Source: Octopus vulgaris (Eukaryota). From it: a stretch of 64,000 nt of DNA. A program made the translations under genes and the position numbers. Location: the NCBI GenBank assembly GCA_951406725.2, contig OX597827.1:15066001-15130000 (forward strand). Direction: 5' to 3'. Below are positions 21,344 through 56,118 of this stretch, piece by piece. Numbering within the stretch: position 1 is the stretch's first letter; the number at the start of each line of letters is the position of its first letter. Under the pieces are notes generated by a model. It saw nothing but the letters and a program-made list of their open reading frames with translations, was not told the DNA's origin and made no database searches.

Positions 21344-21416
21344 CTGGTATATTCAACTGATGAAGGCAGAGCTTATTTGAAGCAAAGCTAGAAATCCAGG
21401 ATCTTGAATTATCCAG
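21344..21416 (+). ncRNA. Type I hammerhead-ribozyme-like motif
   Basis: CTGG-TAT-ATTCAA / CTGATGA / helix II / GAAA-TCCAGG-ATC / TTGAAT-TAT-CCAG. Helix II closes with an A.A mismatch. Confidence 0.65.
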
Positions 21417-21559
21417 TAATATCTTTTTGCTAGTTTATTTTGTCTCTCTGTCTTTTCTTATGGTACGATATGAACATTTAAGGTGGTTTATAGAGTTAGG
21501 GTTTTGACTGCTATTTCGGCATGGTGGTGTCTCTCAGATACCTTTATTTATAGTTGTAT

Positions 21560-21853
21560 ATAAAAGCACCATCCGTTCGTGTCCGTTGCCTGCCTCGCCT
21601 GGCCCCCGTGCCGGTGGCACGTAAAAGCACCATCCGTTCATGGCCGTTTGCCAGCTCTGTCTGGCACCTGTGCAGGTGGCATGTAAAAAGCACCCACTAC
21701 ACTCACGGAGTGGTTGGCGTTAGGAAGGGCATCCAGCCGTAGAAACACTGCCAGATCTGACTGGGCCTGATGAAGCCTTCCGGCTTCACAGACCCCAGTT
21801 GAACCGTCCAACCCATGCTAGCATGGAGAGCGGACGCTAAATGATGATGATGA
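21560..21853 (+). mobile_element. Family R (RTE 3' UTR) copy
   Basis: Same motifs and (GAT)n tail. Confidence 0.85.
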
Positions 21854-22954
21854 TATATATATATATATATATATATATATATATATATATATATATATAT
21901 ATAGTATGTGGGTTTATGACAGGTGTTGAAAGACTAAAGTAGGATAGAGGGATGAGCACAGGTGTCTTGTAATAAAGAGATACATGGCTCCCCCACATAA
22001 TATAAGGGTGAGCGGGAGCAGGGTAGTTGAGAAGGATATGAAAGAAGGTGGTGATGGAGTGCCAGAGAAAAAACTCAAAAGGTACAAGAAGGTGAGATTA
22101 AGGGTGTATATGGACAGTGGGTTGAGGGAGAGGAAGAGAAAGTAGATACTTTCATGAGAATGTGAGGGAAGAATAACAGACAGCTACAGATGGGGGGTGG
22201 AGTGGTGTAGGTAAATTTGTTGAGTGATGAACAAGGGGGCGGAGTGGTTGATGGGAAATATCAGTATTGAGTATATATATATGCAACAGGTGTCTTTCAG
22301 TTTCTGTCTACCAAATCCACTCACAAAGCTTTGGTCGGCCCGAGGCTATAGTAGAAGACACTTGCCCAAGGTGTCACGCAGTGGGACTGAACCCAGATTC
22401 ATGTGGCTGGGAAGCAAGCTTCTAACAACACAGCCACACCTGCACCTATAAATATATATATGTGGTACTACACACACACACACACACACACACACACATA
22501 AACACATGCATATATAATGTAGTATATATATATATATATGCAACAGGTGTCTTTCAGTTCCTGTCTACCAAATCCATTCAAAAAGTTCTACTAGAAAACA
22601 GAGTGGTATTGAACCTGAAACCATGTGGTCGGAAAGGGAACTTGTTAACCACACAGTCACACCAGAACTTATTATTCGTAATTAACTGAAATTTTCTTCT
22701 TAGCCAGAGAAAGGAAAGTAAACATTCAGCAGCTGATGTTAGTGATTCTCAAAGGAAAGGGGAGATAATTTCAAGAAGCCAGGCATCAATCATTGGAACT
22801 TTGGTTAGGATGCTTAGGAGGAGAACAGTTTGATCCTGATAGGTTGCAAAGCAGAGAGAGAGAGCAGCACGGAATGTGGCAGCAGGGAAACGTTCAGGAG
22901 TCGTAACCTGGATGTGGCCCAGCACCCTTCGAGTGTAAAGAGTTAAATGCCAGC

Positions 22955-23178
22955 TTGCATGAGATGAACTGGCAGTAACATTAGCAGGCCGGGTGAAATG
23001 GTTTGTGGTATTTCGTTCGCCGCTGTGTTCTGAGTTCAAATTCCACCGAGGTCGACTTTGCCTTTCATCCTTTCGGGGTCGATAAATTAAGTACCAGTTA
23101 CGCACTGGGGTCGATGTAATCGGCTTAATCCGTTTGTCCTCTCTGTGTTTAACCCCTTGTGGGTAGTAAAGAAATAGG
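22955..23178 (+). mobile_element. SINE family B
   Basis: Similar to other family B copies. Confidence 0.85.
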
Positions 23179-23354
23179 TATTGGTAGGGATTCTTCTCTG
23201 AAGACCTTCTGCTCTTCAGCTCTCCCTAGAGTTTATTATTGCTTTGTTTACAAGTAAGGGACAAACTGTGAACACGTTTTGGTCTATCATACTTCATCGA
23301 TGTTACTAGTCAAGTACTGAGGTCAGTAAAATTATGTCTCTTGTAAGAGAAAGC

Positions 23355-23697
23355 ATCATCCTCATCATTATCATCATTATCATCATCATCGTTATCATCA
23401 TCATCGTTATCATCATCATCATTATCATCATCATCATTATCATCATCATCCTCATCATCCATTATTATCATTATCATCATCATAATCACACTCATCATCA
23501 ACACTATCATCATCATCATAATCATGCTCAACATCAACACTATCATCATCATCATCAACACTATCACCACCACCACCATCACCACCATCATCACCATCAT
23601 CGTCATCGTCATCATCACCAACATTATCCTTGTTGTCATTATCATCATCATCAGTCATCATCATTGTTGTTGTTGTTGTCATTATTATTGTCATCAT
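23355..23697. repeat. (CAT)n-rich microsatellite
   Basis: Read directly. Confidence 0.93.
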
Positions 23698-23954
23698 TTA
23701 ATGTATACTTTTTCATGCTTGCATGGGTCAGGCCGGATTGGCTGAATCAGATTTCCTCCAGTCGCACTGTTTCCAAGCAAGGCAAAAATCTTACCCTAAT
23801 CTAGGCATGTTTCCTCCATAAGAGATTACAAACAAACAGCTCGGCTTCTATGGCATTGATGCCTCTTTGCAATTAGCATGTGATGTCAAGACAATGAGAC
23901 ACAAACACAAAACTACATACCTGGACACCTTGGCACCTGCATATATATATAGTC

Positions 23955-24305
23955 AATAAAAAAGGGTAAAATTAATTAATTATTAATTAATAATTTTACC
24001 AAGTAGTGTTCAGTATGTAAAAAGACCATTTACGGTATATTTAAAACATTACGTTATATAATTAGGGTTCAGTAAAAAAATTTGCTTTACCACACGCCGA
24101 ACTTTTAGAAATAGCAGCCAAAATATTTTAGCTATTTCCTCTACTATAAGAAAAGTCTACCTGCATGAATTATTTTTGAGTATACATTGTCTGGGAGACT
24201 TTTCTTATAGTAGAGGAAATAACTAAAATTTTTTGGCTGCTATTTCTAAAAGTTCGGTGTGTGGTAAAGTAAATTTTTTTACTGAACCCTAATTATATAA
24301 CATAA
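23955..24305. mobile_element. Fold-back copy of an interspersed repeat (~106-bp inverted arms, 37-bp spacer)
   Basis: Arms at 24053-24158 and 24196-24301. A linear homolog lies at ~59060-59330. Confidence 0.8.
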
Positions 24306-24716
24306 TATATATATATATGTATTTATGTTTATATACAAACATACATATTATATGTGTGTATATTTGCATGTATATATGTATATGAATGCATATATGTATG
24401 TTTGTCTGCTTGTATGTATTTAGGTAAGTACATGGGTATGTATGTTTGTGTGGAAGTGTGTGTGTGTTCATTTTCCTTGTCATTTTTCTTGTCTACAACA
24501 CATCATCTAAATTATCCTCACCTTGATAGTAGTATGTTTATCACATCCTTAGATATGGAGCTCTGAACTATACCAGATCATTAAGCTGACTACCCACATT
24601 TCAAAGGTCTTTTTAACCAGACCAATTGCTCCGAGTCATATAAATAACTACTCAAAAGACTGTCTTTCAATATTCTTTGTATATCAAGGAGTACATTGCC
24701 AGATATATCCTTCCTG

Positions 24717-24947
24717 CGAGCTGGCAGAAATGTTAGCATGCCGGGCGAAATGCCTAGTGATATTTCGTCTGCCGTTACGTTCTGAGTTCAAATTCCGCCA
24801 GGGTCGAATTTGCCTTTCATCCTTTCAGGGTCGATAAATTAAGTACCAGTTACGCACTGGGGTCGATGTAATCGACTTAATCCGTTTGTCTGTCCTTGTT
24901 TGTCCTCCCCTCTATGTTTAGCCCCTTGTGGACAATAAACAAATAAG
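24717..24947 (+). mobile_element. SINE family B
   Basis: TSD AGATATATCCTTCCT on both sides. Confidence 0.9.
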
Positions 24948-54310: not shown

Positions 54311-54567
54311 TTGTGCACAGGCAGGGTAGAAGAAAAGTAATAACTTATTAAGTTTTCAGTTATTCTATGATATGTTAGTCAAAGGAGGTTTTGTACATGA
54401 GTGTATTTATTGATATGCATGCAAAGGTGCATCGATGAACATGTGTGTAATGCATGTGTATGTGCACCTATATATGCATGTGGATGCTTGGGCTTAGCAA
54501 AGTATACATGAGTGGGAGTATGCAGCAGTATGTGGAATGGTTAATGCAAGTGAGTGACAAGATGAAG

Positions 54568-54641
54568 GTTTGGATTAGCTCAGTCGGTAGAGCACGAGAC
54601 TCTTAATCTCGGGGTCATGGGTTCAGGCCTCACGTTGGGCG
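54568..54641 (+). pseudogene. tRNA-Lys(CTT) pseudogene
   Basis: TAGCTCAGTCGGTAGAGCACGAGACTCTTAATCTCGGGGTC matches the metazoan tRNA-Lys-CTT D and anticodon arms. The 5' acceptor strand (GTTTGGAT) and T-arm (TTCAGGC) are mutated. TTTTT at 54648-54652. Confidence 0.8.
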
Positions 54642-54653
54642 TATGCCTTTTTA

Positions 54654-54887
54654 GGGCAGCGAGCTGGCAGAAACGTTAGCACACCAGGCGAAATGCGTAG
54701 CCGTATTTCGTCTGCCGTTACGTTCTGAGTTCAAATTCCGCCAATGTCGACTTTGCCTTTCATCCTTTCGGGGTCGATAAATTAAGTACCAGTTACGCAC
54801 TGGGGTCGATGTAATCGACTTAATCCGATTGTCTGTCCTTGTTTGTTCCCTCTGTCTTTAGCCCCTTGTGGGTAGTAAAGAAATAGG
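54654..54887 (+). mobile_element. SINE family B (young)
   Basis: Full length, directly after the tRNA poly-T. Confidence 0.92.
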
Positions 54888-55228
54888 TACACTACTTGTC
54901 ACTCACAACAGACTACAGTAATTCTTACAAACCTGTTTTATTTGCCTACCAGAGAGCTGGTTATTTGAAGCTGATATTATAGACCTGTCAAAGAACTGAC
55001 CATTAATGATTCTTACTACTGATTTGTGACTGTCGCTGTTCTTACCATAGTTGATATTCTTGCTAATATTATTGTCATAGTTGTTGTCACAGTGGTTGGT
55101 ATTGCCATTGGAGTTGTTTTTGCTGTTGGTGTCCTCATCATTGAATCTAAAGAAATCTGGAGTTATCTCTTTTCCTTCCCTTCTCTCTATTGTGTGTGTA
55201 TATATATATATATATATATATATATATA

Positions 55229-55485
55229 TCATCATCATCATCGTTTAATGTCCGTTTTCCGTGCTAGCATGGGTTGGACGGTTCGACCGGGGTCTGGGAA
55301 GCCATGGAGGCTGCACCAGGCTCCAGTCTTGATCTGGCAGTGTTTCTACAGCTGGATGCCCTTCCTAACACCAACCACTCCGTGAGTGTAGTGGGTGCTC
55401 TTTACGTGCCACCGGCACAGGTATCACAACTACAATTTCCATTTGATATTTATTTTGATGTTGATGTTATGTACTTGACTCAATA
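55229..55485 (-). mobile_element. Family R copy
   Basis: Similar to other family R copies. Confidence 0.85.
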
Positions 55486-55574
55486 GATATATATATATAT
55501 ATATATATATATATATATATATATATATATATATGTGAATGATTGCAAGTGTGTACAAGTTTGTGTGTGTGTGT

Positions 55575-55976
55575 TCTTTTATGCTTTTGTTTCAGTCATT
55601 TGACTGCGGCCATGCTGGAGCACTGCCTTTAGTCAAACAAATCGGCCGCAGGACTTATTCTTTGTAAGCCTAGTACTTATTCTATCAGTCCCTTTTGCTG
55701 AACCACTAAGTTACAGGGATATCGGTTGTCAAGTGATGGTGGGGTGACAAACACAGACACACAATACATGCATATACATATATATATATATATATATATA
55801 TATATATATATGACAGGCTTCTTTCAGTTTCTGTTTACCAGATCCACTCACAAGGCTTTGGTTGGCTCAAGGCTATAACAGAAGACCACTTGCCCAAGAT
55901 GCCATGCAGTGGGACTGAACCCAGAACCATGTGATTGGGAAGCAAGTCTCTTACCACACAACCACTCCTACGCCTA
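55575..55976 (-). mobile_element. SINE family A
   Basis: Similar to other family A copies. Confidence 0.85.
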
Positions 55977-56063
55977 TATATATATACATATATATATGTG
56001 TGTGTGTATATGTGTGTGTGTGTGTATATATACACACACATCTCAACTAGCAGGACTCACTAC

Positions 56064-56118
56064 CCTGGACTGATGACGGGAAAGACAGGAAAGACCCAGA
56101 AACATGCATGTCTTCAGG
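56064..56118 (+). ncRNA. Type I hammerhead-ribozyme-like motif with 10-nt palindromic helix III
   Basis: CCTGGA / CTGATGA / C-GGG..CCC-A / GAAA-CATGCAT-GTC / TTCAGG. ACATGCATGT is a perfect palindrome and the cleavage triplet is GUC. Confidence 0.7.

Follow-up and report, generated by a model that had tools for sequence, protein, structure and literature searches.

Five minimal hammerhead motifs in a 64-kb stretch of Octopus vulgaris DNA probably mark the truncated ends of five repeat families, two of them Penelope-like elements

Minimal type I hammerhead ribozymes in the pseudo-long terminal repeats (pseudo-LTRs) of metazoan Penelope-like elements (PLEs) were described by Cervera & de la Pena 2014 (PMC4209133), with no activity of the monomer and low activity of the dimer, and cleavage by the hammerhead of an anole PLE is assisted by protein and dispensable for insertion in vitro (PMC11167929). 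The Hydra clade of PLEs is marked by RWK and DKT motifs, an endonuclease without CCHH, and terminal CxxC and CxH motifs, carries hammerheads in which one additional base flanks helix II on either side and helix III is a 9-nt palindrome, and includes Hydra-1_Obim, a (TA)n-targeting Hydra family of Octopus bimaculoides (Craig et al. 2021, PMC8557442). Animal non-LTR retrozymes have been proposed to stem from PLE pseudo-LTRs (PMC7229834; bioRxiv 10.64898/2026.07.22.740005), and the schistosome Sm-alpha and Sj-alpha elements are hammerhead elements resembling short interspersed nuclear elements (SINEs) that join an RNA polymerase III (Pol III) promoter to a hammerhead (PMC6765202). Minimal dimer-type hammerheads in truncated PLEs have already been published, as has the presence of several such families in one genome, and so have Hydra and Neptune elements that target (TA)n. 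Here, we analyze a stretch of 64,000 nucleotides from Octopus vulgaris (contig OX597827.1, positions 15,066,001 to 15,130,000, forward strand; "the window"), in which a first-pass annotation based on the letters alone had noticed five hammerhead-like motifs in short islands.

The best explanation, to which we assign a probability of roughly 85%, is that the five islands are 3'-end insertions of five repeat families (F1 to F5) with minimal type I hammerheads, of which two (F3 and F4) are PLE pseudo-LTR ends and three (F1, F2 and F5) are non-coding. Motif type and insertion structure suggest that the latter three are likely linked to PLE enzymes and copied by them in trans. The motifs, numbered like the families, are the following:

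21344..21416, + strand: hammerhead 1, core CTGATGA at 21357, A/A at the base of helix II, helix III ATCCAGGAT; predicted cleavage 3' of C21403
33691..33736, + strand: hammerhead 2, core CTGAAGA at 33696, an additional A ahead of G10.1, helix III ACGT; predicted cleavage 3' of T33731
43371..43408, - strand: hammerhead 3, core CTGTCGA at 43403-43397 (A6U), helix III ACGT; predicted cleavage 3' of A43376
50481..50534, + strand: hammerhead 4, core CCAATGA at 50493, helix III ACTCAGAGT; predicted cleavage 3' of A50522
56064..56118, + strand: hammerhead 5, core CTGATGA at 56070, C/A at the base of helix II, helix III ACATGCATGT; predicted cleavage 3' of C56112, with a loop II 9 nt longer than in the majority of its family

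All five motifs are indeed present where they had been annotated and show the type I topology ascribed to them. The core CUGANGA...GAAA...UH with helices I and II is exact in motifs 1, 2 and 5, and the exact core is absent in motif 3 (one mismatch, at position 6) and motif 4 (two mismatches, at positions 4 and 5). A descriptor composed of CTGANGA, helix II of at least 3 bp (with at most one extra base on either side), GAAA, a palindromic helix III, NUH and helix I of at least 4 bp matched the window 3, 4 and 7 times at zero, at most one and at most two core mismatches, respectively. The corresponding means were 0.01, 0.09 and 0.64 for 100 local dinucleotide shuffles (300-bp blocks) and 0, 0.07 and 0.73 for 100 whole-window shuffles, and the observed counts were reached in 0/100 of either kind. 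Probably, two of the seven matches at up to two mismatches are due to chance, and motif 4 is confirmed through its repeat family rather than through the descriptor. That all motifs are chance matches of a permissive descriptor might be argued from the two core mismatches required for motif 4 and from the Rfam hammerhead models, which gave no match among the 150 of 297 matches listed for the whole window, nor when motif 2 and its relatives were scanned specifically. However, the window counts were reached in 0/200 shuffles, and an unselected sample of the genome (80 stretches of 10 kb on a fixed grid, 800 kb in total) contained 8 exact matches and 24 at up to one mismatch, compared to 0 in reversed sequence and 0-3 in five shuffles. 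Together with the position of the motifs, which is the one expected within PLE pseudo-LTRs, these results rule out a chance origin, which we regard as exceedingly improbable. The proposed palindromic nature of helix III and its instability on its own were borne out in all five motifs, with a favourable self-duplex (-7.6, -1.7, -1.7, -7.4 and -13.3 kcal/mol for motifs 1-5) and a hairpin that is either positive in energy or impossible (+2.4, impossible, impossible, +2.1 and +1.7 kcal/mol). For motif 2, the annotated helix III AACGTT had to be shortened to ACGT because the longer string takes in A14 and the cleavage base.

The islands and their immediate surroundings are composed as follows:

21314..21554, + strand: F1, 5'-truncated copy of a ~485-bp non-coding unit, 96% to the family majority
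21290..21321, - strand: short inverted F1 piece, a PLE-type 5' inversion, at the island's 5' junction
33652..33826, + strand: F2, 5'-truncated tail, the head being absent in the window copy
43277..43468, - strand: F3, 5'-truncated 3' pseudo-LTR of a Neptune-like PLE, flanked by (TA)n tracts
43472..43515, no strand: (TA)n on the 5' flank of F3, with a shorter such tract adjoining the F3 3' end below 43277
50465..50632, + strand: F4, pseudo-LTR end and 67-nt tail of a Hydra-clade PLE, 5'-truncated
50392..50468, no strand: (TA)n on the 5' flank of F4, with a shorter such tract past 50632
56040..56342, + strand: F5, 5'-truncated copy of a ~355-bp non-coding unit, with a short (TA)n at the 3' end and a TA/TG tract at the 5' side

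Searches of the genome assembly (2.8 Gb, 227 contigs) upheld the idea of several independent, multi-copy families, given that each island is one copy of a different genome-wide repeat family. The first-look candidates of DNA searches numbered 1,861 for F1, 2,763 for F2, 1,482 for F3, 1,481 for F4 and 2,810 for F5, of which 40 loci were scored per family (identity 87-98%). We rejected the alternative of a single family with diverged copies, as the majority sequence of each family finds its own island within the window and no other. With inverted pairs counted twice, the motif density is 1 per 33 kb in the grid sample versus 1 per 16 kb (4 per 64 kb) in the window, which is thus about twofold richer than the genome average, and extrapolation from the 24 matches in 800 kb suggests a genome total on the order of 80,000 hammerhead motifs. 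BLAST matches covering the motif in the grid sample numbered 1 for F1, 7 for F2, 16 for F3, 8 for F4 and 0 for F5; by extrapolation, the copies of F3 that bear the motif number roughly 50,000, with F5 being far less common. The sample also revealed a sixth abundant hammerhead family, a sister of F3 with the core CCGACGA or CTGACGA (12 copies in 800 kb; loci L133, L161, L169, L191, L197, L200 and L203), that is absent from the window, and a short repeat with a U3-A8 hammerhead in F5-like layout was seen at L114:1-120 and L190:9800-9900.

The first-pass annotation had taken all families to be non-autonomous, which does not hold for F4 and F3. Long F4 copies lead upstream into an open reading frame (ORF) of the reverse transcriptase (RT) plus C-terminal GIY-YIG type that ends ~1.3 kb upstream of F4 and was seen in locus L259 and in 4/7 extended loci. 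A protein search gave 25,721 candidates, of which the 132 scored mostly share 87-88% amino acid (aa) identity and have open frames to 727 aa and more. This sister subfamily (87-88% aa) contains intact 727-aa ORFs between two F4 repeats, and L345, L347 and L349 display the order repeat, ORF, long 3' untranslated region (UTR), repeat, with a hammerhead in both repeats. The F4 partner protein carries RWK, DKT and terminal CxxC and CxH motifs, has no CC pair inside its endonuclease and shows an incomplete CxCX5C linker (second C to F) that is intact in a related ORF of L265. F4 insertions terminate either at the pseudo-LTR end or, like the window copy, 67 nt beyond it in the 5' UTR, a two-ended pattern that fits the internal initiation and the "tail" described in PMC11167929. 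The core reads CTGATGA in 35/35 motifs of the young F4 subfamily, and C4 is found in 28/29 and 26/26 motifs of the older one. The window copy combines the subfamily core CCGAYGA with a G5A change at a CpG, and its hammerhead is likely inactive. Separately, we observed at L057:1241-1662 an inverted F3 end fused directly to a 5'-truncated F4 copy, which suggests template switching between PLE clades and shared machinery.

For F3, an upstream extension was found in 2/20 top copies, and a search with this extension retrieved 40 longer copies, some of which continue into ORFs of the RT and GIY-YIG type, with same-strand RT/GIY-YIG matches upstream of F3 in 3/30 long copies and 3/10 further ones. 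The motif lies ~700-880 nt downstream of the ORF end, and the ORF remnants contain RT motifs, a CX4CxxC linker and a GIY-YIG domain with CxxC between its halves, resemble DreriNep1 when compared by eye, and match proteins with Pfam RT and GIY-YIG domains (E about 1e-31 for L256). No full-length F3 element with two pseudo-LTRs was found among the copies seen. Across PLEs more generally, a descriptor motif lay downstream of 98 PLE ORF ends in 27 cases on the same strand versus 6 on the opposite strand (some loci overlap). A search for the GIY-YIG family returned Neptune-like elements whose 3' ends match none of F1-F5. Among these elements, L209 is an unrelated, intact Neptune-like PLE whose two pseudo-LTRs are identical, which carries a U3-A8 hammerhead and is bordered by (TA)n on either side, and L206-L209 are near-identical intact Neptune-like copies with a 781-codon open frame and pseudo-LTRs that are 99-100% identical. 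Near-identical intact copies with a 727-codon frame likewise make up the Hydra family L345-L350, and both families look recently active. Core variants of coding PLEs include TTGATAA (U3-A8 swap) and CCGAAGA (U4C), found at L209:5350-5390, L211, L214, L222 and L265.

The core of F3 itself is altered throughout the lineage. In unselected copies from the grid sample (one match without an anchor was excluded), position 6 is T in 15/16, and C3, U4, G5, A9, A13, A14, A15.1 and U16.1 are kept in 16/16 and G8 and G12 in 14/16, with all four bases at N7 and three at H17; the 12 copies of the sister lineage have A6 in 11 and C4 in 6 cases. In a joint alignment of F3 and its sister, 88.8% of cells are paired (98% in helix II) compared to 16-45% in slid controls, and the covariation score beats 500/500 shuffles. 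F3 copies share ancestry and are not independent events, so the spread of A6U counts as one event.

A preference of the islands for microsatellites, as claimed in the first-pass annotation, is weak in its original form, given that such a tract is no more than 150 bp away from 33% of the positions in the window, but it is strong where the 3' ends of elements in three families are considered. Tracts of (TA)4 or longer within 16 nt of the 3' end, for which the background is 4.1%, were found for F3 in 17/20 selected and 11/15 unselected copies and for F4 in 20/21 and 6/6, as compared to 2/16 and 0/4 for F2. At true insertion ends, scored in a 20-nt window, the figures are 14/19 for F1 and 6/17 for F5 (three F5 loci lack an end motif). 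The preference therefore stands for F1, F3 and F4, partially for F5, and not for F2. Upstream inverted pieces accompany 5/19 copies of F1, 6/15 of F2, 11/20 of F4 and 5/20 of F5. Fixed 3' ends and variable 5' truncation recur across the families, and F1, F2 and F5, which lack coding capacity, combine them with adjacent inverted pieces or partial tandems.

From what is known of PLE biology, insertions of this kind would begin with a GIY-YIG endonuclease nicking (TA)n or AT-rich DNA, after which RT would start at a fixed internal site just beyond the pseudo-LTR and mostly stop early, leaving 170-300-bp islands that keep the hammerhead. Helix III is predicted not to close alone, and cleavage would be expected only as a dimer or with the element's protein, in a tandem precursor RNA; lone genomic copies such as the five in the window would mostly be passive.

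F1 and F5 copies reach no other shared sequence but run through a fixed junction into their own 3' end, with head-to-tail periods of 468-489 bp in 5/19 F1 loci (not counting L029, an excluded duplicate of L030) and 352-359 bp in 7/20 F5 loci. The reverse complement of the inverted piece at 21290..21321 was found at such an F1 head-to-tail junction in L030, and the F1 search also gave matches on the opposite strand. Fixed junctions with periods of ~485 and ~355 bp, longest ATG frames of only 45 aa (F1) and 54 aa (F5; one locus each), an exact core in most copies and unit sizes that overlap those of animal retrozymes (PMC7229834; preprint 10.64898/2026.07.22.740005) would all suit true non-LTR retrozymes, in which tandem arrays self-cleave into RNAs that are ligated to circles and serve as insertion templates. 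Retrozymes nevertheless seem an unlikely explanation: two same-strand motifs were seen in 0/19 F1 and 0/20 F5 sampled loci (patterns matched 16 and 13 loci), the 3' ends are fixed and distant from the cut site as with PLE tails, and upstream partial copies and inversions are the usual PLE pattern. The motifs of both families are Hydra-type in layout, with a long palindrome and, at the helix II base, A/A in F1 and C/A in F5, and we prefer to view F1 and F5 as non-coding units that are likely mobilized by Penelope-like enzymes.

F2 differs in having a tRNA-like head. Full copies consist of a ~75-nt head, (AAT)n and the hammerhead tail with a sharp 3' end that passes into varied AT-rich flanks, with no poly(A) or simple-repeat tail. 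The head contains A- and B-box-like motifs and an anticodon-like stem (the B box and stem were recognized by inspection); a strict A-box pattern occurs in 8/14 other copies, and the alignment extends to the head in 12/14. ARAGORN reported a tRNA in 0/12 F2 loci, and Rfam reported none in F2 scans. Whether F2 is a Pol III-driven, tRNA-headed SINE with tens of thousands of copies that would be moved by a Penelope-like enzyme rather than by a long interspersed nuclear element (LINE) is an evenly balanced question. An inverted piece lies upstream in 6/15 copies, often head to head at the 5' end, and motif 2 fits the published consensus of minimal hammerheads in PLEs (PMC4209133). These two features and the sharp 3' end speak against an ordinary LINE-dependent SINE that captured a PLE pseudo-LTR and carries its hammerhead as a passenger. 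The box-like motifs of the head and the lack of (TA)n targeting would be expected of such a SINE, for which no PLE partner of F2 among the loci examined and RNA reads that continue into unrelated flanks in 84-86% of cases can also be cited, and we consider this origin improbable but worth keeping in mind. A search with a diverged F2 relative brought up only further F2-like tails and no loci.

Sequencing reads of a related organism, three raw RNA runs of one study (~6% of each read, apparently unstranded) and one DNA run, were compared with F2 and an F3-F4 junction. This organism may be a different species, because at 88% likeness it lacks the 5' part of F4. The matching reads number in the thousands, and 84-98% of them continue into unlike sequence. 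In RNA and DNA alike, depth peaks on the F3 hammerhead (in DNA, 514,000 versus 1,500-5,000 for flanking sequence) and stands out as an island over the F4 hammerhead, and variants above 15% include N7 and H17, with none at position 6 among the 40 of 46 variants listed. The depth peaks on the motif and the variation at N7 and H17 support selection on the motif but not cleavage. At L006:1395-1680, we additionally noticed 10-15 T>C sites in RNA reads compared to 3 in the DNA run, an excess consistent with A-to-I editing of antisense copies, with RNA and DNA coming from different individuals.

It is quite possible, if somewhat short of an even chance, that motifs of F3 (A6U) and those with U4C are no longer working ribozymes and either retain an RNA fold as a binding site for PLE protein or for dimerisation or are passengers after a mutation of the master copy. 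A6C, a natural variant, has low activity (kobs < 0.1 per min; PMC3088659), ribozyme mutants of the anole PLE insert normally in vitro and no reads ended at its cut site (PMC11167929), and the F3 lineage has, by extrapolation, grown to roughly 50,000 copies whose motif carries U6. A viroid tolerates U4C (PMC3088659). Degeneration of this kind is argued against by the other core positions of F3 being kept in 14-16 of 16 unselected copies alongside four bases at N7 and three at H17, and by the second organism, in which no part of the F3 and F4 ends is better conserved than the motif, with variation at N7 and H17. For F3 in particular, a non-catalytic or only weakly catalytic role of the hammerhead likewise has somewhat less than an even chance. 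Somewhat more doubtful is the idea that the U6 core, with the rest kept across subfamilies and in a second species, represents an undescribed working core variant that would probably be helped by protein. Taken jointly, a SINE-like F2 moved by a Penelope-like enzyme and a working U6 core in F3 would form a picture that we rate slightly below an even bet.

Several observations weigh against the interpretation of the five islands as hammerhead-bearing PLE-type insertions. No coding partner or shared terminal sequence was found for F1, F2 and F5 among the PLE loci examined, which cover a small part of the genome, and upstream inversion was seen in 0/20 top F3 copies. All F3-lineage ORFs among the copies seen are broken, and neither three broken F3/F4 ORFs nor the 727-aa ORF of the F4 partner yielded a Pfam domain. 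Assignment of F3 to Neptune (with Nematis as the alternative) and of F4 to Hydra is based on motifs and by-eye comparison and not on a tree. The covariation signal of F3 and its sister comes from one helix I pair only (C-G to G-C). As to activity, monomers fold no better than shuffles for 3/5 motifs (z of -0.79, -0.65 and +0.51), a comparison that is uninformative for dimer-type motifs, and no pile-up of read ends was detected at the F2, F3 and F4 cut sites in the three RNA runs, for which fragmented RNA-seq is a weak test.

Beyond the five islands, the window begins with a 147-bp tandem array at 1-4617 (31 copies, 445-bp higher-order period), after which trinucleotide repeats extend over ~8 kb. 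A unit of 184 bp is arrayed in tandem at 32078-33185 (6.0 copies) and 40661-41034 (2.0 copies), with 91-94% matches, and resembles a dispersed repeat present at many loci. A single-exon ORF of 813 aa at 34060-36501 on the minus strand has cadherin repeats and a hydrophobic C-terminal segment and appears protocadherin-like; the F2 island lies ~230 bp beyond its end in antisense. At 54576-54633 on the plus strand, a tRNA-like sequence (31.6 bits versus Rfam tRNA, gathering threshold 29) looks like a decayed tRNA-Lys or SINE head.

One in vitro study found the PLE hammerhead dispensable for insertion and active only with protein (PMC11167929). The canonical, U3-A8, U4C and A6U cores of related octopus families represent a natural series for addressing the role of the ribozyme, for which the protein could come from ORFs of the intact, near-identical Hydra and Neptune-like copies. 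Should a PLE enzyme move F2, SINEs would gain a partner class besides LINEs. The estimated ~80,000 motifs per genome went undetected by Rfam models where tested. The first-pass expectation that standard annotation would miss the elements was mistaken, since repeat pipelines do annotate octopus PLEs: 30 recently active Penelope families have been annotated in octopus by a study whose main text does not contain the word "ribozyme" (PMC13282606).

Compared to these known systems, the families described here, a natural A6U core and a tRNA-headed element with PLE-type inversions were not found in the literature searched, the scope of which excluded picture-only supplements, repeat databases and Lunse et al. 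2017. The window motifs share with minimal PLE hammerheads the type I topology, a base between A9 and G10.1 and the palindromic 15.2-16.2, as well as an occurrence as thousands of lone copies from truncated PLEs, in several families of one genome, and as opposite-strand pairs at distances of 100-700 bp (PMC4209133). Motifs 2 and 3 fit the consensus layout of that study, and its U3-A8 variant occurs in the octopus genome, too; F3 U6 and the subfamily-specific C4 were not encountered in its text (pictures in the supplement excepted), and no octopus turned up in the searched text of its supplement. The first-pass annotation had passed over the family-wide core changes of F3 and F4 (A6U and U4C) and the tRNA-like head of F2; the arrangement as a whole is mostly a known one, with A6U and the tRNA-headed F2 as its variants.

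Among individual clades, F3 differs from Neptune-clade PLEs in that only broken ORFs were seen and in its lineage-wide A6U core. F4 agrees with Hydra-clade PLEs in RWK, DKT, the lack of CCHH, terminal CxxC/CxH, the (TA)n target, the extra bases of helix II and a 9-nt helix III that is identical to the one of Penelope-3_HM (PMC8557442 File S2), but departs from them by the lost second C of the linker and by a U4C core in the older subfamily that is canonical in the young one. Its partner belongs to another family than Hydra-1_Obim, with a different hammerhead, a longer 3' UTR and a unit of about 3.3 kb. Like non-LTR retrozymes, F1 and F5 are non-coding, measure 350-490 bp per unit, carry one type I hammerhead and show head-to-tail junctions; unlike them, the copies sampled were monomers or partial tandems in which a single motif occurs, and this motif is of the minimal or Hydra type and not of the canonical loop-loop type. 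F2, finally, resembles Sm-alpha and Sj-alpha in combining Pol III-type promoter motifs and a hammerhead in a short non-coding repeat, but it is dispersed instead of tandem and has a 5' head with an (AAT)n spacer, a minimal PLE motif and PLE-type 5' inversions.

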